Shown here: positions 2,625 to 64,000 of the stretch, piece after piece
Layout: every line of letters starts with the position of its first letter
How positions within the stretch are numbered: the stretch's first letter is position 1
Assembly: GCA_039801565.1 (NCBI GenBank)
Contig: JBDRUX010000002.1
Location: forward strand, 332 to 64,331
From: a candidate division WOR-3 bacterium
Lineage (GTDB): Bacteria; Hydrothermota; Tepidihabitantia; Tepidihabitantales; JAOUPE01
Direction: 5' to 3'
DNA: 64,000 nt
Translations under genes and position numbers: made by a program
Notes under the pieces: generated by a model
What the model was told of the DNA's origin: nothing
The model's database searches: none
The model's input: the letters and a program-made list of their open reading frames with translations, nothing else

Positions 2625-5225
2625 TCAGCGTTTACTATAACTCAGTGCCTGAGCAATCAGTTGATTCAATTCTTCTTCAGTTTCTACTAACACGCGTCGC
2701 GATTTACTACCAACATAAGGTCCCACGATTCCAGCCTGTTCTAACTGGTCAATGATTCGACCGGCCCTTGCCCAGCCGACATCAAGCCGACGCTGTAACA
2801 TCGAGACCGATGCCTCCTTATGCTGATAGACCAATCTTGCTGCTTCAGCAAAAAATTCATCAATCTCCCTTAACGATTCTTTAGTGGTCAACCGTCTCTT
2901 ATCTGCCTGCTCGATTTCGGGCAAGGGGCGGTGATAATCTAAGGCTAATAGATTATCCGCAACATTCTCAGGCAGCAAAGAGTAGAGTAATTGCCGTTTC
3001 TCTTTAATCGCTGCCTTCTCCTTATCCAGGAGAATCTCTAAAGCCCCTTGCTGGATGATTTCCCGAGCCTTAATTCTACTCGCCGAAATGAAATTGTCAA
3101 GCAATTCCGTAAGGTAGTATTCACTCCAGAGGTCAACGATTCTTTTGGTCTCGGCAGCCGAGATAAATGCACCGTGCAGTCTTATCGGTTCACCTTTGCC
3201 CGGTGGTAGAAATAGCATATCACCGCGGCCTAAGAGTGATTCGGCTCCATTCATATCGAGAATGGTTCGGGAATCGGTCTTCGAGGCAACCTGAAAGGCA
3301 ATCCGACATGGAAAGTTAGCTTTGATTAAACCGGTGATCACATCCACCGAAGGACGCTGGGTGGCTAAAATTAGATGAATGCCAACCGCTCGGGACATCT
3401 GTGCTAAACGGGTAATCTTTTCTTCGATCTCGACCGGTGCCCGTAACATCAAATCGGCCAACTCATCAATTACTACTACGATATAAGGCTTTTTCGGTTT
3501 ACCCTCGTTGGTCATCTTCACATTATAGTCATTAATATCCCGGACCCCAGCCCGGGCAAACTCACCGTACCGCTGTTCCATTATCAAGATTACTTTATCT
3601 AATTCACCGATGGCTGATTTTGGGTCGATTGTAGTTGGACTTAAAAGATGTGGTATTGGGTTATAGATGGGTAATTCTAACTGTTTTGGGTCAATCGTCA
3701 AAAATCGAACATCCTGATAAGATGAACGATAGATGATACTGGTGATGATGCAATTGATACAAACACTTTTGCCCGAACCGGTGGTACCGGCAATTAGAAT
3801 ATGAGGCATCTCCCGTAAATCCGCACAATACGGTTCACCGGTGATTGTTTCACCCAATGCGAAACCTAAAGGTGACTCTTCATTGGCAAAAGCATCCGAA
3901 ATGAGAATCTTCTTTAAACTGACCATTCGGCGTTCTTTATTTGGGATTTCAATACCAACCGCTGATTTTCCCGGGATTGGTGCCAAAATCCGAATTCGCT
4001 CGGCTTGTAAGGAGAGGGCTAAATCATCGGCTAAATTCTCCACGCGTTGCACCTTTATTCCGGGGGCGGGTTGGAATTCAAACCGAGTAATCATCGGACC
4101 GGTTAAGATATTAGAAATCGTCCCCTCCACACCAAATTCCGCCAGTTTTTCTAAGAGTAATTCCGCACCCTGCCGGGCTTCACCAACATTTACTAATGAA
4201 TCCTTTTCCACCGGCGATTCCAATAGCGACAAAAATTGCTGCCGAAATTCATCCTTGGGGAATTTATAAGTTGGTTGCTGGGTCGGCGCCGTTATCACCT
4301 CTAAGTCCGGAGTCGCCGTGCTCGTTGGTTTTGCCGCTTCGGTAACCGGTATCGCTGGTTCTTTAATCCGAATCTGTTTCTTAAATAGACCAGCGACTAA
4401 CTTTACTAATTTTGACTCTTTCAAGCCGATAAACCATTTGCGCAAAGTTGTAAAACTGAGGACAAACCCCAAAAGCAAAAGAACAAGCAAAAGTAGGGTT
4501 CCGGCGCGGCCAATGATATTGACCAAACTGAAGATTATTGCTCTGCCTAATAGCCCACCTAAATAGAATTGACTCCTATTGAGTTGAATTTGTAAATTAG
4601 GTAAGAAATAAGTTAGATAAAGACTGAATAATAATACCCCTCCAATTATTATGCTGGAATAGATGAGATACGGTTTAACTTTTTCGCGGCGAAAACGGTT
4701 CAGCCCCCAAATTCCTAATAAAATTGGCAGGGTAAAAGAAATAATCCCTAAGCCAGTAAAAATTCTTTGGCTGAGCCAATAACCGAAACCACCACCCAAA
4801 TTTTTTGTGCCTGCAAGATAGGAATCAAAGGAAAGAATTAGAAATAAGGCTACTTGCCAATAGATACCGGCTTCAAACCAGAACCAGCGTCGGCGTTTCG
4901 CAAGCCTCTGGACCGACCAAATTACCAAACTAACAATGATTAAGTAAGTCCCCAGACCAAAAATATTTGACAACCAGCTTGCTACTGCTTGTCCAACAAT
5001 TCCACCCCAATTTGTTTCCGGCGACCTCTTGTTCAAGTCGAATGAGAAGACACTGGCAAAAATAAAGATTAAAAGCGCTAAAATTAAAAGGCTAGTCAAC
5101 CAACGCCAACCAGTTTCCGAAAGTTTTTTCCTTTTCGGTTCTTTCGATTTTTTATTTTTCATAGAATGCTTTGGCCCAGGAATAAAAAACTGAAAAAAGC
5201 GATAAAGGGTTGGATTAAAGACCAA
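2625..5225 (-). CDS. ftsK: DNA translocase FtsK/SpoIIIE
   Basis: N-terminal multi-TM region, Walker A IAGTTGSGKS, C-terminal gamma wHTH. The true start is probably the internal Met near 5162 (MKNKKSK…), giving only a 4-nt overlap with the upstream gene. Confidence 0.9.
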   Translation of the reverse strand: MVFNPTLYRFFQFFIPGPKHSMKNKKSKEPKRKKLSETGWRWLTSLLILALLIFIFASVFSFDLNKRSPETNWGGIVGQAVASWLSNIFGLGTYLIIVSLVIWSVQRLAKRRRWFWFEAGIYWQVALFLILSFDSYLAGTKNLGGGFGYWLSQRIFTGLGIISFTLPILLGIWGLNRFRREKVKPYLIYSSIIIGGVLLFSLYLTYFLPNLQIQLNRSQFYLGGLLGRAIIFSLVNIIGRAGTLLLLVLLLLGFVLSFTTLRKWFIGLKESKLVKLVAGLFKKQIRIKEPAIPVTEAAKPTSTATPDLEVITAPTQQPTYKFPKDEFRQQFLSLLESPVEKDSLVNVGEARQGAELLLEKLAEFGVEGTISNILTGPMITRFEFQPAPGIKVQRVENLADDLALSLQAERIRILAPIPGKSAVGIEIPNKERRMVSLKKILISDAFANEESPLGFALGETITGEPYCADLREMPHILIAGTTGSGKSVCINCIITSIIYRSSYQDVRFLTIDPKQLELPIYNPIPHLLSPTTIDPKSAIGELDKVILIMEQRYGEFARAGVRDINDYNVKMTNEGKPKKPYIVVVIDELADLMLRAPVEIEEKITRLAQMSRAVGIHLILATQRPSVDVITGLIKANFPCRIAFQVASKTDSRTILDMNGAESLLGRGDMLFLPPGKGEPIRLHGAFISAAETKRIVDLWSEYYLTELLDNFISASRIKAREIIQQGALEILLDKEKAAIKEKRQLLYSLLPENVADNLLALDYHRPLPEIEQADKRRLTTKESLREIDEFFAEAARLVYQHKEASVSMLQRRLDVGWARAGRIIDQLEQAGIVGPYVGSKSRRVLVETEEELNQLIAQALSYSKR

Positions 5226-5833
5226 AGGATTGGCACACCGGTCACTGACCCCAAAAAGATAATTCCCAATAGAATAAAAAATCCGTAACGCTCGAGTCTC
5301 ATATATTGGTAAGCGAGATTTGCTGGCAGCAGATAATATAAGATTTTGGAACCGTCTAACGGTGGGATCGGAATTAAATTAAATGCGGCAAGGATTAAAC
5401 CATAGAAAAAGAAAGAGAAACTGATGACACTGATAAATTCACCAAGATTGCTTGGCATTATTTTCATAAAAGCTGAAGCCGGCAGACCGTGTAAGGGACG
5501 AGCAAAGAAACGGATGAGAAGACTAAAAACCAAGGCGCAGAGCAAATTGGCGATTGGTCCAGCAATTGAAGCCAGCATCATATCGCGCCGCGGCTTTCGG
5601 AAATTGTAAGGATTTAAAGGCACTGGTTTTGCCCAACCGAAATGGAAAAGAAAAATGGCAATTGTGCCAATCGGGTCTAAGTGCTTTAAAGGATTAAGGG
5701 TCAAGCGACCATTAAGCCGAGCGGTTGGGTCACCCAATTTATCCGCAATGTAGCCGTGGGCAAACTCATGAATCGTCAGATTAAAAAGTATCGCCGGCGC
5801 CCGCAAGAGAAACAAAATTGGATTATCTAACAT
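5159..5833 (-). CDS. Site-2 protease family (peptidase M50) membrane metalloprotease
   Basis: HEFAHGY (HExxH) within a TM segment, multiple TM helices, LDGS-like second motif. Confidence 0.75.
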   Translation of the reverse strand: MLDNPILFLLRAPAILFNLTIHEFAHGYIADKLGDPTARLNGRLTLNPLKHLDPIGTIAIFLFHFGWAKPVPLNPYNFRKPRRDMMLASIAGPIANLLCALVFSLLIRFFARPLHGLPASAFMKIMPSNLGEFISVISFSFFFYGLILAAFNLIPIPPLDGSKILYYLLPANLAYQYMRLERYGFFILLGIIFLGSVTGVPILWSLIQPFIAFFSFLFLGQSIL

Positions 5834-7016
5834 TTCGCCTCACTAACTTTTTTAATAACTCTAATTCATCGGCGCGTGTCTTCACTTTGCCATCCAATCG
5901 CGCCAAAAGGATTTGGTCCAAAAGTTCGCTATAGATGGCGCCCGGTGTTATTCCTAATGCCTTCACATCATTGCCACCGAGTTCGGTCTTCACCATTTGA
6001 TACCTTTCCAAATAATTCTTAATTTTAATCGCAATCTTGGGATTTTCAACCAATTGGGCAATTTTCAAGGCATCATTGGAAAATTGGCGAAGGATTCGAT
6101 AGACCTCACTTGGATAAGTTGCTTTTTCCAATTGCTTGCGGACTTTAGGAAACTCTTGCCAATCCTTTATTGCGGTTGCCATTTCCTTGGTTATTGGGAA
6201 ATTAGCCGGTAGTTTAAATTGGGCTAAGAGGTGAATTAACCTAAGATTAGCATCTTTAACTTTTGCCACTTCTCGTAATTGGTTAAAAAAATTTCCTGTT
6301 AAATTCTTATTGAATAATGCCCTAAAGACTTTTTCTTGATTTAAGCGTTTAATCATCTTTTCCCAATTTTGTTCCTTTGCCATCAAGCGCAATTCGTTTA
6401 AGACCCGTTCACCCGAAAGAAGAGAGATTAATTTCTGATTAACTGCGCTTCTCAGCCATTGTAAGGTCTTTGGTTCAATTTTGAAATTGAACCTTTCGGC
6501 GAACCTGATGGCACGAAAGATGCGGGTCGGGTCGTCAATAAAACTTTTTGGATGCAGGGCACGGATGACCTTGTTTTTTAAATCTTCCCGACCTCGAAAC
6601 GGATCAATCAATTCACCGCTGACTAAATCCTCAGCCATTGCATTGATAGTGAAATCCCTTCGGTATAAATCGGCAATCAAATCCGCAGGAGCGACTTTAG
6701 GTAATTCGGCAGGTTTGGAATAGATTTCCTTCCGAGTCTGAGCGATATCAATATGCGTAATTGAATTACCATTGGTTTTCGCTTGGGGCAAAATGATTGT
6801 GCCGGTATTGAAATTTTGATAAAATTGGAACTTCGCATTAAGATTTGCAGCTAAATCTTTACCAATAATGTGAATCAATTTATCCACGACAATATCTAAG
6901 TCTTTGACCTTTCTTCCTAAAAGTTTATCTCTTAATGGTCCACCGACCAAATAGACTCGGCTATCATGGCTTTGGGCAATTTTTTTAAGATTATCAAGGA
7001 TATTACTAATTACCAT
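5823..7016 (-). CDS. cca: tRNA nucleotidyltransferase (CCA-adding)/poly(A) polymerase family
   Basis: VYLVGGPLRDKLLGRKVKDLDIVV head-domain motif (GG…RD…DxD). Confidence 0.8.
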   Translation of the reverse strand: MVISNILDNLKKIAQSHDSRVYLVGGPLRDKLLGRKVKDLDIVVDKLIHIIGKDLAANLNAKFQFYQNFNTGTIILPQAKTNGNSITHIDIAQTRKEIYSKPAELPKVAPADLIADLYRRDFTINAMAEDLVSGELIDPFRGREDLKNKVIRALHPKSFIDDPTRIFRAIRFAERFNFKIEPKTLQWLRSAVNQKLISLLSGERVLNELRLMAKEQNWEKMIKRLNQEKVFRALFNKNLTGNFFNQLREVAKVKDANLRLIHLLAQFKLPANFPITKEMATAIKDWQEFPKVRKQLEKATYPSEVYRILRQFSNDALKIAQLVENPKIAIKIKNYLERYQMVKTELGGNDVKALGITPGAIYSELLDQILLARLDGKVKTRADELELLKKLVRRNVR

Positions 7017-7117
7017 CGGAATGGGAAATCGGCAATCCTAAGTTCTAATCTCTCATCACCAGATTGAAGGTGTTGTTTCATAACTGTGAACGAAAAGGTA
7101 AAACAAGTAACAGCGGC

Positions 7118-7474
7118 TTAAAAACCGAGCCCTTTAGTCGACTCCTCTTTGCCCATAACCTTGATTTTACCAAACCGGTCTTCAAATTTCTTAATATTTT
7201 CCTCCAAAGCATTCAAGAGCAATCGGGCATGTTGTGGTGTCATAACAATCCGAGAAAAGACTTTAGCTTTAGGTAGACCAGGAAGGATACGAGCAAAATC
7301 AATGATGAATTCTGAGGCCGAATGAGCAATCAAGACAAAATTCGAATAAATGCCCTCAGACTCTTTCTCACCAATTTCAACCTGGATTGGTGGACCCTTT
7401 TGTTCTTCTGGCATATCACTCCTTTTAACCATTTTAAAGCAAATTAGCAAAATGTCAAGGTTCGATTCCTTCAA
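7118..7474 (-). CDS. DUF3467-family small protein
   Basis: YSNFVLIAHSASEFIIDF core resembles DUF3467; start codon uncertain (several in-frame Met); the start lies 10 bp from the IS end. Confidence 0.45.
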   Translation of the reverse strand: MKESNLDILLICFKMVKRSDMPEEQKGPPIQVEIGEKESEGIYSNFVLIAHSASEFIIDFARILPGLPKAKVFSRIVMTPQHARLLLNALEENIKKFEDRFGKIKVMGKEESTKGLGF

Positions 7475-7483
7475 ATGTCATTG

Positions 7484-8829
7484 CAAAGCGAAAATGTCCC
7501 CTTTAATTGCAAAACGAAAATGTCCCCTCCTCCTTTATTTAGTTATTATTATTTATATTATTATTTAAAGAGGACGAATGCAAGAACCATCAAAATCGTA
7601 TGTTAAACTGGGAGATAGAATTGTGATACTGACCGATGTTAAAAAGAGGTACCATCTCACTAAAACAAGCCAGCGAATTACTTAAAATCTCCTACCGCCA
7701 TGCCAAACGATTATACAAAATATTCAAAACCTCTGGTGTAATGGGACTCTTACCGAAAAAACGTACCAAACCACCCTGGAATAAAACTACCACCGAAATT
7801 AAACAGAAAATTATTAGCATTAAACAACAATTCCCCACCATTCCGCCTATGGCGGATTGCCATCTGACTGACTTGCTAAAAGAACAAGGCATAACCATCT
7901 CTCACGAAACTGTCCGCACCATCCTCATTCACAATCAACTCCACACCCCAAACCTTAAACTGAAACGACGCCCCCGAAAACGATTTGAAGCCGAAAAAGC
8001 CGGAAAATTGGTCCAGATGGATACCTCGCCTTATCATTGGTTACCAGCCATTGATAAGGAATTAAAGTTAATCCCTACCTTTGACGACCACTCCAGAAAA
8101 CCACTTGCCGCCCGAATTGCCGAACACGATACCACTTGGGAAAATATGGGTGTCTTAAGAAAAACGGTAGAGAAATATGGTATCTTCGAGACCCTTTATA
8201 CGGATTGTGATGCTAAATTCAAATACTATCGAACTAATTTCTCTTTATACTTCAATTATCAAAAACCACCGGAGGCGGTAGACACGCAAATTAGTCAGGC
8301 ATTAGCGGAATTGGGAATTATTATCCTTAACACCCATCCCCATGCGCCGCATGAAAAAGGAAAAATTAAACGTTTCTTTGGTTTCTTACAAGCCCGTTTA
8401 CCCATTGAATTTCAAAGGCATGGTATTACCACGCTAGCTGCGGCAAATCGGTATTTAGAAAAGTATTTAGACCGCTACAGTAGTCAATGGGTGCATAGTA
8501 CTACGGGGATAATTCCGGATGAGCGATTTAAGAATTCCTGTTTTAAGCCGTTACCGGCGGATTGTGATTTAGATGCGATTTTCTGTTTGCGCGAGACTCG
8601 CAAGGTAAAGAAGGACAATACCTTTAGCTATAAGGGGCAGACATTTCAATTGACCAATTTTAATTATCGGGCTTATTGGGGTGATGTTGAGATTGCGCTT
8701 CGGATTATTCCTGGGAAAGAAATTAGAGTCTATCATCAGGACCGATTAGTTCAAAGATTTCGTTATAATGGTGACCGATGATTGACAACCAAAAGAAAAA
8801 GTTTATCGTAAGGGGACATTTTGGCTTTG
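7484..8829 (+). mobile_element. Insertion sequence (~1.35 kb) with 19-bp imperfect terminal inverted repeats and one rve-type DDE transposase gene
   Basis: Left IR caaagcgaaaatgtcccct (7484-7502) versus the reverse complement of the right IR aggggacattttggctttg (8811-8829), 18/19 match. A second tandem copy of the left IR lies at 7509-7527. Flanks share gtcat/tcat, a possible target-site duplication. Confidence 0.7.
7636..8781 (+). CDS. DDE transposase/integrase (rve superfamily; IS481/ISNCY-like)
   Basis: N-terminal HTH; DDE candidates QMDTS…TDCDAKF…HAPHEKGKIKRFFG (E in a PQTQGKVER-like context). Confidence 0.7.
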   Translation: MLKRGTISLKQASELLKISYRHAKRLYKIFKTSGVMGLLPKKRTKPPWNKTTTEIKQKIISIKQQFPTIPPMADCHLTDLLKEQGITISHETVRTILIHNQLHTPNLKLKRRPRKRFEAEKAGKLVQMDTSPYHWLPAIDKELKLIPTFDDHSRKPLAARIAEHDTTWENMGVLRKTVEKYGIFETLYTDCDAKFKYYRTNFSLYFNYQKPPEAVDTQISQALAELGIIILNTHPHAPHEKGKIKRFFGFLQARLPIEFQRHGITTLAAANRYLEKYLDRYSSQWVHSTTGIIPDERFKNSCFKPLPADCDLDAIFCLRETRKVKKDNTFSYKGQTFQLTNFNYRAYWGDVEIALRIIPGKEIRVYHQDRLVQRFRYNGDR

Positions 8830-8874
8830 TCATAACCAGATTACTGTTTTCTGTTTTTGTAAGATATTGAAAAA

Positions 8875-9465
8875 TTGCCTGACTTTTTCAGAGCTCTCTT
8901 TAACTCTTGGCTAAATAAAATTAGTTATGACTTAACTAAATTCGGGTTGACACTGGATATAAAAAAACAGCCTAAACCACCAGTTCAAACCGCGATGCTT
9001 AAATTCAAAGAAGTTTTATATCAGTTGGGTTTAACTGAACAAAAATCGGCAAAGCTATCAATCACACTGGAGGTAGATGCCAATCCGCCTAAAGGTTTTA
9101 AAATCGAGACCTCTTTAATCACCCGGCATTTTGTCTTTGCGATTACTCATTTTGACATCTCCTCCCTTTATGCCCTTAAACTCCATGCCTGTTTTTTTCG
9201 AAAATATACCAAGGGCAGGGATTTCTACGATTTACTCTGGTATTTAGGCAGAAAAGCGGTTCCCAATTTCAAATTACTCAATAATGCGATTGAACAGACA
9301 GAAAAAAAGAAACTAAATATTAATGCCAATAACTTTCGAGAGTTTTTGCAAGAACATTTAGCAAAGATTGACTTTAATCAAGTGAAGCGAGATATTAGTA
9401 GATTTATTGAAGATAAAAATGAATTGAAATTGCTGGACAAAGCAACAATCCTAAAACTGGTTTGA
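8875..9465 (+). pseudogene. Nucleotidyltransferase AbiEii/DUF1814-family toxin, C-terminal fragment (N-terminal NTase domain missing)
   Basis: KGRDFYDLLWYL matches the conserved DUF1814 (AbiEii) C-terminal motif. The frame is closed by a stop at 8860-8862, so nothing can extend upstream. TTG start; lies 46 bp from the IS right end. Confidence 0.45.
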
Positions 9466-9479
9466 TTAAATGAGTTTAA

Positions 9480-10304
9480 TCATTCTTTTAAGCCGCTACG
9501 GGCATAGGATTCGATAATGTGGCGCTGGGCAAAGAAGAATAAAATGACTAGTGGTAAAATCGTTAGAGTTGATGCTGCCATTAATAAAGTATAATTGGTT
9601 GACTGTTCCCGAGAGAAATAAGCCAAGCCAACCTGTATTGGTCGAATTGAGTCACTGTGCGTGACAATCAAAGGCCAGAAGAATGAATTCCAACTGGCTA
9701 TGATGTTAAATACCACAATCGCAATCAGAGGTGCTTTGGATAAAGGAACGACAATTCGCCATAAAGTACTAAATCTACTACAGCCATCGATCTTTGCCGC
9801 ATCAAATAAATCTTGAGGCAAGGTCTTGAAGTGCTGTCTTAACATAAATATTGAGAAGATATTCACCATCCAAGGAACAATCATCGCCCAATAGGTATCA
9901 ATCCAACCTAAATTGTATAGAATCATATAAGAAGGAACTAAATAAACCGGCAGAGGAATCATCATCAGCGCCAAGAAGACCATAAACAGAACTTCTCTTC
10001 CCCAGAATTCAATCCGAGCAAAGGCATAAGCAGCTAAAACACCGGTGAAAAGAATACCAAATAGGGTGACTGCCGTAATGAAAATAGTATTGAGAAAGTA
10101 ACGGAAAAAGGAAATCTCTTGAAATACCTCGGGATAATTGGCAAAACGCCAAACTTCAGGTAGCCAGGTAGGCGGAAAACGCAATGCCTCTAAGGGTGTT
10201 TTTAATGACGTGAGAACCATCCAGATAAAGGGTAGAATCATAAGAATTCCACCCAAAATTAAGATTAAGTGAACTGGTATTAATTTAAAATTTGGTTTAG
10301 GCAT
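9480..10304 (-). CDS. Carbohydrate ABC transporter permease (MalG-like)
   Basis: EAA-loop region DAAKIDGCSRFSTLWRIVVP, 6 TM segments. Confidence 0.8.
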   Translation of the reverse strand: MPKPNFKLIPVHLILILGGILMILPFIWMVLTSLKTPLEALRFPPTWLPEVWRFANYPEVFQEISFFRYFLNTIFITAVTLFGILFTGVLAAYAFARIEFWGREVLFMVFLALMMIPLPVYLVPSYMILYNLGWIDTYWAMIVPWMVNIFSIFMLRQHFKTLPQDLFDAAKIDGCSRFSTLWRIVVPLSKAPLIAIVVFNIIASWNSFFWPLIVTHSDSIRPIQVGLAYFSREQSTNYTLLMAASTLTILPLVILFFFAQRHIIESYARSGLKE

Positions 10305-63520: not shown

Positions 63521-63611
63521 TATTTATTATACCATAAAAACTTCAAAAGTTCCAGTTGAATTTAAGATATCTCCTGCTGCGGTTTTTTAATATTTTATGG
63601 TGCAAATTAAA

Positions 63612-63682
63612 CTGGGGGACAGGGATTCGAACCCCGATAGACAGATCCAGAGTCTGCCGTCCTGCCGTTAGACGATCCCCCA
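63612..63682 (-). tRNA. tRNA-Gln (anticodon CUG)
   Basis: Manual fold: acceptor UGGGGGA/UCCCCCA (U1:A72 as in tRNA-Gln), 3-bp D-stem GUC/GAC, anticodon stem GCAGA/UCUGU (5 bp, one G-U) with loop C-U-CUG-G-A, T-arm CGGGG-UUCGAAU-CCCUG; CCA not encoded. Confidence 0.75.
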
Positions 63683-64000
63683 ATAAGTAGCAGCTTATTA
63701 AGCATAAGCCAGATTTGCCCGATAGTCAAGAATTTCTGATTGCAATAACGGTAGCAGCATTAAAACAATTTAGTGTACTGCTCTTTGAAAAATTCCAAGT
63801 AGACGTCTGCTTTCAAGCTTAAGAGTGCTATTGGGGAGCTCGGTTTGAGGACTTACGAAAAGAAAGAATTAAGATTAGCGGTTAAGAACACTGAGCGTTA
63901 AGAAAATATGTTTGGGCACTGCTTTTTCTACTATCAAACTGATTAAGAGCCTTTTTAAAGAAAGAAGGTAAGATAATAAGTTTTAAGTTATCGTGCCGTT

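Follow-up and report, generated by a model that had tools for sequence, protein, structure and literature searches.

Insertion sequences (ISs) of the IS1202 family are 1.3 to 2.0 kb long, are bounded by repeats of ~24 to 28 bp, and encode a transposase of ~394 to 507 amino acids (aa). Two papers define the family, one by Harmer et al. (PMC10132070) and one by Siguier et al. (bioRxiv 10.1101/2022.12.17.520857). Targeted insertion has been reported only for the subgroup that makes 5-bp target duplications (Siguier et al., bioRxiv 10.1101/2022.12.17.520857), and neither paper found a target for the subgroups with long duplications. Here, we describe an IS in a 64,000-nucleotide stretch of contig JBDRUX010000002.1 (assembly GCA_039801565.1; "the window"), from a metagenome-assembled genome (MAG) of a candidate division WOR-3 bacterium. 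The IS lies between a DUF3467 gene and a truncated gene for the toxin AbiEii. A sequence-only reading of this locus had proposed that a lone, intact IS decapitated the toxin gene. Our comparison with related copies points instead to a decayed element beside a toxin remnant, and it suggests that elements of this kind insert next to promoters.

Sequence signatures of the IS1202 family in a WOR-3 element

We compared the element with related copies found in metagenomes (L003 to L008), by exact-protein look-ups (L094 to L100), and in a second WOR-3 MAG (L101). Among the related copies (n = 12), the left tip reads TGTC(A/G) and the right tip RTAACA-3' wherever the contig includes that end, and the alignment shows that the sequence beyond the TGT and ACA tips varies from copy to copy. 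Perfect target duplications abut both tips in L007 (16 bp, CAAAACAATTAGTAAC) and L101 (18 bp, GGGAAAAACCCCAGTATA), and L095 (in its left flank) and L096 (in its right flank) have a 15-bp half-site in common. Because the tips are fixed by this alignment and by the L007 and L101 duplications, the window element occupies positions 7476 to 8837, a length of 1362 bp (Table 1); the limits first proposed, 7484 and 8829, stop short of the true tips that the 12 relatives reveal. The bases once taken for a 4- to 5-bp duplication (gtcat/tcat) lie inside the inverted repeat, and the real duplications of these relatives are 16 to 18 bp long. No target duplication flanks the window copy, whose left-hand 17-mer GGTTCGATTCCTTCAAA (7459 to 7475) occurs once in the window. 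The elements measure 1278 to 1470 bp, and intact relatives encode transposases of 395 to 400 aa.

The 19-nucleotide (nt) sequence CAAAGCGAAAATGTCCCCT is found at 7484 to 7502, at 7510 to 7528 with one mismatch, and inverted on the minus strand at 8811 to 8829 with one mismatch; 0.02 such matches are expected by chance in the window. The sequence-only reading was right that this sequence is repeated, and it in fact occurs three times, but the terminal inverted repeat itself is longer than the 19 bp proposed. It spans ~28 nt (7476 to 7503 and 8810 to 8837), with 23 of 28 positions matching and 27-nt arms that agree at 85%. A tandem duplication of the left repeat had been placed at 7509 to 7527. 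The second copy does exist, at 7510 to 7528, but as a family-typical subterminal site rather than an accidental duplication: it stands at equal spacing in L003, L005 to L007, and L094 to L100, and an equivalent inner repeat has been described for the IS1202 family (PMC10132070). Most related copies carry AAAATGTCCCCT twice at the left end, 26 bp apart, and twice at the right end, 24 bp apart. The inverted-repeat pair, whose absence elsewhere would have spoken against an IS, was present in all other copies. Viral contigs contained neither transposase relatives nor copies of the IS ends. In more distant loci (L010 to L082; 24 to 29% identity), an automated scan for direct repeats of at least 12 nt returned no duplication-flanked TGT...ACA elements, and these loci were left unused.

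Pfam detected HTH_32, HTH_28, and rve in the transposase open reading frame (ORF) at 7636 to 8781; together with the located repeats, these domains bear out the earlier identification of an rve/DDE insertion sequence with terminal inverted repeats. ISNCY_2 ranked first among the NCBIfam models, with 239.5 bits, just under its cutoff of 250. The second-ranked model, IS481 (NF033577), scored 120.1 bits against a cutoff of 224, and IS481 membership was ruled out by this score and by the residue seven positions after the catalytic glutamate (E+7). We then used an intact relative, P0001 (MEO0115099.1), which matched the ISKpn21 transposase with 27% identity over 97% of its length (tblastn E value, ~1e-20). 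ISKpn21, annotated as an "ISNCY-like element ISKpn21 family transposase," is a listed member of the IS1202 family (PMC10132070), and the value falls inside the identity range of 25 to 60% that Harmer et al. (PMC10132070) state for the family. The alignment with ISKpn21 identified D148, a DD pair (D169-D170), D209, E264, and, at E+7, Gln271; D169-D170 and E264...Q271 are invariant in the relatives, ISKpn21 included. Relative to ISKpn21, there is an 8-aa insertion between D209 and E264 and no C-terminal extension. Such features are signatures of the IS1202 family and its ISTde1 subgroup (Siguier et al., bioRxiv 10.1101/2022.12.17.520857; Harmer et al., PMC10132070). As judged from its sequence, the element is thus a new IS1202-family member from candidate division WOR-3, of the ISTde1-like, long-duplication subgroup. 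The subgroup placement is by signatures, namely, ends, duplication length, and indels.

Related insertions lie next to promoter-like sequences

The left end of the window copy faces the DUF3467 gene, which is transcribed away from the IS. The sequence-only reading put the IS 10 bp from the start of this gene. In the longest ORF (118 aa, from TTG 7474), the PF11950 match begins at aa 23, an AAGGAG ribosome-binding site precedes ATG 7415, and the promoter lies inside the extended frame. The start is most likely ATG 7415, and the TTG 7474 ORF is probably an over-extension. With ATG 7415 as the start codon, the IS tip lies 60 bp before it. Between them is a promoter that matches the consensus at 11 of 12 positions, with its −35 hexamer 17 bp from the tip; the core promoter is intact. 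The transposase gene of the IS points away from this promoter. We rejected the idea that the IS itself carries the promoter: the target duplications of L007 and L101 separate promoter and tip, and the flanks of L005 and L006, which are 95% identical elements, differ, as do their downstream genes. A tRNA fragment in the left flank, suggested by the T-arm-like GGTTCGATTCC, was also rejected because ARAGORN detects none. The 17 nt at 7459 to 7475 (GGTTCGATTCCTTCAAA) resemble the T-arm consensus GGTTCGAnTCC but contain neither a tRNA nor a fragment of one by ARAGORN, and the sole tRNA that ARAGORN finds in the window is a tRNA-Gln at 63611 to 63683.

The same geometry recurs in the relatives. In 10 of 12 independent related insertions (the window, L004 to L008, L095 to L097, and L101), TTGAC starts 15 to 18 nt outward of the left tip. 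A −10-like hexamer follows in each of the 10, after a spacer of 14 to 17 nt that is mostly 16 to 17 nt, and the downstream genes differ. With a background of 0.6% for TTGAC in a four-position window, the probability of 10 in 12 is ~5e-21. The duplications of L007 and L101 abut TGTCAA and occupy precisely the interval from the hexamer to the tip.

We next examined the curated insertions in Supplementary Table 1 of Siguier et al. (bioRxiv 10.1101/2022.12.17.520857), using the rows with a duplication. A full promoter was defined as TTG followed, after a spacer of 15 to 19 nt, by a −10 hexamer with at least 4 of 6 consensus positions including A2 and T6; all other offsets in the same flanks served as controls. 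In the ISTde1 group (34 rows; duplications of 15 to 18 bp), TTG abuts the duplication on the left in 22 rows and is part of a full promoter in 19, while a TTG is found on the right in 9. The control rates are 1.7% for TTG and 0.24% for the full promoter (binomial P values, 5e-31 and 4e-41). The IS1202 group (32 rows, 31 with duplications of 24 to 29 bp and one with 17 bp) has a left abutting TTG in 23 rows, a left full promoter in 21, and a right TTG in 2, with control rates of 1.7% and 0.47% (binomial P values, 4e-34 and 1e-41). The commonest spacer between the −35 and −10 hexamers in these published flanks is 17 nt. Most of the IS1202-group misses show a perfect TATAAT at the correct spacing from a −35 hexamer that is degenerate or shifted by 1 to 2 nt. 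All three listed copies of IS1202 itself conform, and the hosts in the flank table span many phyla.

With moderate confidence, we conclude that the long-duplication subgroups of the IS1202 family, here the ISTde1 type (16 to 18 bp), the IS1202 type (24 to 29 bp), and the WOR-3 lineage, target promoters, in that the duplication abuts the upstream edge of the −35 hexamer and usually the left end faces it, and that this preference is both real and undescribed. A literature search returned no description of promoter targeting for the IS1202 family, although its coverage was incomplete and prior knowledge is possible. Because the −10 spacing is kept even where the −35 hexamer is poor, the landmark would be not the bare TTGACA word but a complex at the promoter, with σ region 4 or RNA polymerase. 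This suggests that promoter-bound RNA polymerase or σ is recognized, by analogy with the recognition of XerC-bound dif proposed for the 5-bp subgroup. Alternatively, the transposase might directly recognize sequence that resembles the TGTCA tip of the element or its AAAATGTC binding motif.

We also noted that the duplication classes of the family (5 to 6, 16 to 17, and 27 to 28 bp) differ by ~11 bp, or one helical turn, and that the landmark is invariably adjacent to the duplication. This suggests that, of the two strand-transfer sites, one is fixed at the landmark and the other moves stepwise along one face of the helix; the subgroup-specific transposase indels reported by Siguier et al. (bioRxiv 10.1101/2022.12.17.520857) fit such a stepping model. 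If the preference is true, promoter-directed transposition in bacteria would be family-wide. It would follow a "safe haven" logic, with the core promoter preserved and just the DNA upstream of it moved away, and genes could be rewired through an outward −35 hexamer or promoter at the right end. It would also help to explain how a DDE transposase acting as a single protein recognizes a landmark made of protein and DNA, and tools for site-directed insertion could possibly be built on it.

TABLE 1 Features of the IS locus and its flanks in the window
Feature	Positions	Strand	Basis or remarks
DUF3467 gene	7118–7415	−	98 aa from ATG 7415; Pfam PF11950, E value of 5.9e-27
σ70-type promoter of the DUF3467 gene	7431–7458	−	TTGACA (7458–7453), N16, TAAAAT (7436–7431); reads away from the IS
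17 nt between −35 hexamer and IS tip	7459–7475		Place of the left copy of a 16- to 18-bp duplication; no right-hand copy
Defective IS1202-family (ISTde1-like) insertion sequence	7476–8837	+	Alignment with L003–L008 and L094–L101; duplications of L007 and L101
Left terminal inverted repeat	7476–7503	+	Tip TGTCATTG; outer AAAATGTCCCCT site
Inner (subterminal) left repeat	7510–7528	+	26 bp after the outer repeat; presumed second transposase-binding site
Native transposase start and 22 correct codons (MQEPSKSYVKLGDRIVILTDVK), then frame lost, giving a 35-codon stub	7578–7685	+	Matches N terminus of P0001 and of other 395- to 400-aa relatives
Remaining 381-aa transposase ORF (annotated MEO0113947.1)	7636–8781	+	Lacks the first 19 residues of the helix-turn-helix (HTH) region
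A5 run, one A more than intact copies (4 A), a +1 frameshift	7641–7645	+	Extra A absent in L101, L003, and L004
AAA (Lys) for GAA, catalytic Glu of the DDE triad (E264K)	8368–8370	+	G in L101, L003, and L004
Outward promoter-like site	8782–8809	+	TTGACA, N16, TATCGT; TATCAT or TATTAT in relatives
Right terminal inverted repeat	8810–8837	+	Single repeat; tip AACC
61 bp with no assigned similarity between IS tip and AbiEii homology	8838–8898		
ΔN AbiEii remnant, 196-aa ORF (MEO0113948.1)	8875–9465	+	Homology at 8899–9462, toxin residues 76–263
ABC permease gene	9480–10304	−	Sister-species synteny resumes exactly here

The window copy carries probably inactivating changes

The element had been described as intact, but a frameshift, the E264K change, and a damaged right end contradict this. 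Relatives' transposases start MQEPSKSY... or MVK.... In the window copy, the frame that begins at the native start is soon lost, and with one A removed from the A5 run, the frame encodes 400 aa and its product shares 98% identity with P0001. This restored protein departs from the relatives at only 1 of 138 columns that are invariant among 13 of them, and that column is Glu264, which aligns with the catalytic Glu of ISKpn21 and is conserved in distant relatives as well. We rejected programmed frameshifting at GTT AAA AAG as a rescue: it is not credible because the change needed is +1 and the relatives, with one A fewer, have a single ORF; the run is also too short for transcriptional slippage. 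The annotated "hypothetical protein" MEO0113947.1 should accordingly be corrected to a frameshifted IS1202-family transposase with a dead catalytic site.

Nine changes are private to the window copy at positions where L101, L003, and L004 agree among themselves. The nine include, at the right end, a 24-bp loss that removes the inner right repeat, a right tip of ACC where all 11 related loci with a right end have AACA, and a changed −10 hexamer in a promoter-like site. The right 50 bp of the IS contains 4 substitutions in addition to the 24-bp deletion, against a divergence of ~1.2% elsewhere. The copy has decayed since its insertion, and it would no longer make an active transposase. Even if an intact sibling supplied transposase, the right end might serve poorly as its substrate.

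Such siblings exist, and the IS is not the lone copy that the sequence-only reading took it for. The intact, 400-aa, 98% identical protein MEO0115099.1 is probably encoded in the same MAG because its accession series neighbors that of the window ORF, MEO0113947.1. L101 is an intact copy with 98.5% nucleotide identity to the window element, and in two sister assemblies the contigs break inside the IS, at two different points. The junction between the IS and the toxin remnant, with the private lesions of the right end, is identical in two other assemblies, or three in total. One of the sister contigs (L083, positions 1 to 469, compared with window positions 8406 to 8875) has 4 differences clustered in 8476 to 8508, inside the IS, and is identical to the window over the damaged right end and for 3.7 kb downstream. 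The clustered differences suggest either a mixed consensus of several IS copies or gene conversion between copies. Elsewhere in the data, the duplication of one insertion (TGATAAAAATTTCTG) is split between two contigs, with one half in the left flank of L095 and the other in the right flank of L096, whose own left flank belongs to another insertion. Either the flanks of a multicopy IS become mixed during assembly, or its copies recombine. Metagenome contigs that lack a duplication therefore call for caution.

The related copies carry an outward promoter-like site, TTGACA-N16/17-TAT(C/T)AT, located after the transposase stop and before the inner right repeat. Its hexamers are conserved among copies that are 68 to 98% identical (L003 to L008 and L094 to L101), and its spacer varies. 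The window site, with its private TATCGT, points into the AbiEii remnant. As predicted from its sequence, the site could drive the transposase across a circle junction, or flanking genes; circle-junction expression has been proposed for copy-out-paste-in elements. In most published ISTde1-group elements, the right tip TGTCAA itself reads outward as TTGACA.

A remnant of the toxin AbiEii lies beyond the right end

AbiEii toxins are defined by four motifs, namely, motifs I and II of the DNA polymerase β fold, hG[G/S]-x15-DhD, with an Arg in motif II, and two motifs specific to the family, motif III, K...R, and motif IV, +DxxD (PMC3985639). The ORF at 8875 to 9465 matches Pfam PF08843 (E value, 4.6e-14) and the PADLOC AbiEii model (E value, 1.9e-49). 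Alignment, tblastn, and PADLOC agree that it spans toxin residues 76 to 263, and it is 62 to 72% identical to the nearest full-length AbiEii proteins aligned. The KGRDxYDLxWY motif noticed earlier is present as KGRDFYDLLWY, in which KGRDFYD is motif IV. Motif III (KLHACFFRKY) and motif IV (GRDFYD) are both kept and are invariant in the alignment. VGGTALR...RRFSEDLDF (motifs I and II), which full-length homologs carry at residues 46 to 66, is absent from the fragment. The earlier description of a toxin without its N-terminal half was correct about the loss of the N terminus with its nucleotidyltransferase motifs, but the loss amounts to 75 of ~263 residues. The in-frame stop said to close the frame is there, at 8860 to 8862.

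The 120 best homologs are 217 to 296 aa long, mostly 263 to 264 aa. None of them starts near residue 76, as would be expected of a natural short form, which upholds the view that the gene is truncated; the shorter entries (217 to 243 aa) retain the DLD motif. Motifs I and II were found neither in the upstream frames nor in the rest of the 64-kb window, and tblastn of partner proteins detected no abiEi in the window (best E value, 2.0). In four full-length abiEii loci, a partner gene lies immediately upstream and encodes 206 to 217 aa where complete (it is cut by the contig end in L090); the partners in L085 and L087, the two that were scanned, score as AbiEi with E values down to 5.6e-54. Mutants in motif I or II are nontoxic and do not bind GTP (Dy et al., PMC3985639). 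By analogy with these mutants, the fragment would be nontoxic, a probable pseudogene remnant of an AbiE type IV toxin-antitoxin and abortive infection module. Judging from the genes present, no functional AbiE system is predicted to remain at the locus, and the AbiEii annotated in the window should be read as a remnant without catalytic motifs.

In another WOR-3 MAG (L085, positions 4370 to 7673), intact abiEi and abiEii genes lie beside genes for a BsaWI-like restriction enzyme and an N6/N4 DNA methyltransferase; this is a small defense island. The genomic context of AbiE differs in each of the four full-length loci, consistent with mobility.

Origin of the right junction

The IS had been thought to decapitate abiEii by insertion and deletion. 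The homology to AbiEii, however, begins at 8899, 61 bp past the tip; because the truncation point is 61 bp away, the IS did not insert into abiEii. The intervening 61 bp match nothing: their alignment scores against the 5' 250 nt of four full-length abiEii genes are at the shuffled mean, and they have no match in the window or in any of the loci compared. A by-eye likeness of this segment to a decayed GGTALR...DLDF in the other two frames was rejected on the shuffled-level scores and because tblastn starts at residue 76 in four homologs. On the far side of the remnant, a sister-species contig (L091, with a 90% identical permease) is collinear with the window from an aspartyl/asparaginyl-tRNA synthetase homolog to the permease stop (window position 9482). 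Past that stop, L091 has an unrelated gene, no abiE, and no DUF3467 gene, and the contig ends 1.7 kb later.

We consider it likely that the locus is the scar of two dead mobile or defense genes: within an interval that has been rearranged, an IS1202-family copy has decayed and only a dead fragment of AbiEii is left. The left junction, with its canonical insertion geometry, would be original. The right junction would be secondary, the product of a deletion or an exchange of the right-hand DNA once the IS was in place. The IS and the abiEii remnant are separated by one or more further events or by filler DNA. A deletion or rearrangement on the right side is likely because the target duplication is missing. 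The junction could have arisen through a deletion that nicked the tip, through exchange with another IS copy, or, less likely, through an assembly join. Siguier et al. (bioRxiv 10.1101/2022.12.17.520857) attribute duplication-less IS1202-family copies to intra-replicon events or recombination.

Several points weigh against this reading. The frameshift and E264K are known from one MAG contig only, since the sister contigs start at 8406 and 8668, and this leaves some room for an assembly or consensus error at both sites. Illumina-type assemblies, however, seldom get the length of an A5 run wrong. For the DUF3467 side, we did not recover the ancestral state without the IS: a scan of genome contigs gave two partial matches, synteny with L091 ends at the permease, and L093 is not syntenic. 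The missing duplication is weak evidence of a biological rearrangement because most metagenomic copies also lack one and two different insertions contribute the flanks of at least one contig (L096). Finally, the remnant ORF stays open for 196 codons in an AT-rich genome, downstream of the outward promoter of the IS, so that some residual expression or function is conceivable.

Homologous recombination between two IS copies, by inversion or deletion, might have joined the DUF3467-promoter flank of one to a right flank of the other that already carried an abiEii remnant truncated by an unrelated event, a possibility that we regard as tentative. At least two copies are probably present in the same MAG, recombination is the usual reason given in the family papers for missing duplications, and the concentration of substitutions and the deletion in the right 50 bp fits an exchange, as the filler between tip and abiEii fits a preexisting flank. 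Against it, the private changes are spread over the whole element rather than lying on one side of a crossover, no second copy with reciprocal flanks was found in the 64-kb window and the short contigs, and the right flank lacks a −35-like TTG 15 to 18 bp from the tip. Rather unlikely, in our view, is that the IS inserted near or into abiE and that an IS-mediated adjacent deletion (intramolecular transposition from the right end) took away abiEi together with codons 1 to 75 of abiEii. What is missing of abiE does lie on the side toward the IS, the right end has no duplication, synteny breaks on both sides of the segment made up of the IS and ΔabiEii, and the literature ties duplication-less copies of the family to intra-replicon events. 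A deletion made by the transposase, however, ends exactly at an intact tip, and here the tip base differs from that of all 11 related loci with a right end; 61 bp that are unrelated to abiEii precede the AbiEii homology, and, on the evidence of the left junction, the IS originally targeted the DUF3467 promoter and not abiE.

An improbable explanation is that assembly threaded the 65-kb MAG contig through a multicopy IS and joined nonadjacent loci, possibly with parts of different copies. The two break points of the sister assemblies inside the IS, the 4 differences of L083 within 8476 to 8508, and the joined flanks of different insertions in L095 and L096 would all fit such a chimera. The right junction with its private lesions is nevertheless the same in three assemblies, the private single-nucleotide differences along the window copy let an assembler tell it from its sibling, and a chimera would leave the conclusions about IS family, right-end damage, and toxin truncation unchanged. 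It is very improbable that a C-terminal AbiEii domain has been domesticated here, with the 196-aa fragment serving some function, for example, as a decoy or regulator, and being transcribed from the outward promoter of the IS. Its 196 open codons are identical in three assemblies, the promoter-like site at 8782 to 8809 points into it, and motifs III and IV are retained. Yet its TTG start has no ribosome-binding site, none of the 120 best homologs begins near residue 76, the catalytic motifs whose mutation abolishes activity are missing, and the exact sequence is recorded in only three closely related WOR-3 MAG assemblies, with no others in its 90%-identity cluster. By itself, the locus matters little; it records the decay of an AbiE defense module and an IS in an uncultured WOR-3 lineage.

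In L091, a 122-aa DUF559 (Vsr-like endonuclease) gene (7193 to 7561) lies between two ATP-binding cassette (ABC) permease genes and overlaps the start of the second. The same two permease genes overlap each other directly in the window (10297 to 10304), and the DUF559 gene looks like a small selfish-gene insertion inside an operon.

Comparison with known systems

Several described systems share features with the two parts of this locus. The AbiEii fragment resembles toxins of the AbiE system and the DUF1814 and MenT groups in keeping motif III and motif IV (+DxxD); it differs in lacking residues 1 to 75, with the GG of motif I and the R...DxD of motif II, and the window lacks abiEi. The IS shares with the IS481 family an rve-type DDE domain, an N-terminal HTH, and TGT tips. 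Its E+7 residue is Gln, however, not Lys or Arg, and its duplications are 16 to 18 bp long. IS481 duplications are shorter than that. The TGT and ACA tips and the several subterminal transposase-binding repeats recall TnsB of Tn7 and MuA of Mu, and the papers on the IS1202 family model its transposase on TnsB. Unlike these elements, the IS is a single-gene element without TnsA-, TnsC-, TnsD-, or TnsE-like accessory genes.

With regard to targeting, the closest parallel is provided by the ISAjo2/ISAba32-type elements, which insert at dif and pdif (XerC/D) sites. In both cases, the landmark is on the side of the left repeat and abuts the duplication, and the orientation is fixed. Those elements make 5- to 6-bp duplications beside the XerC arm, whereas here the duplication is 16 to 18 bp and its neighbor is a σ70-type −35 hexamer.

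Overall, the ISTde1 subgroup (ISTde1, ISCARN53/62/63, and ISHahy13, among others; formerly the ISNCY/IS1202 group) is the nearest match. Its members, like the WOR-3 elements, are 1.3 to 1.5 kb long and encode a single 394- to 430-aa transposase with HTH and DDE domains and no C-terminal domain. Both have 5'-TGT...ACA-3' tips, imperfect inverted repeats of ~27 bp, and an additional internal copy of the inner repeat near both ends. The transposases share the DD pair between D1 and D2, the Gln at E+7, and a 5- to 10-aa insertion between D2 and E, and the duplications of 15 to 18 bp in the subgroup compare with 16 to 18 bp in the WOR-3 copies. The differences are that the WOR-3 transposase is only ~27% identical to the sole named member compared, ISKpn21, which belongs to another subgroup, and that candidate division WOR-3 is absent from the listed host phyla of the subgroup. 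In addition, the WOR-3 right tip is TGTTAYGAC where TGTCAA is common in the subgroup, the WOR-3 lineage has a complete outward promoter ~55 bp inside the right end, and the copy in the window is defective.

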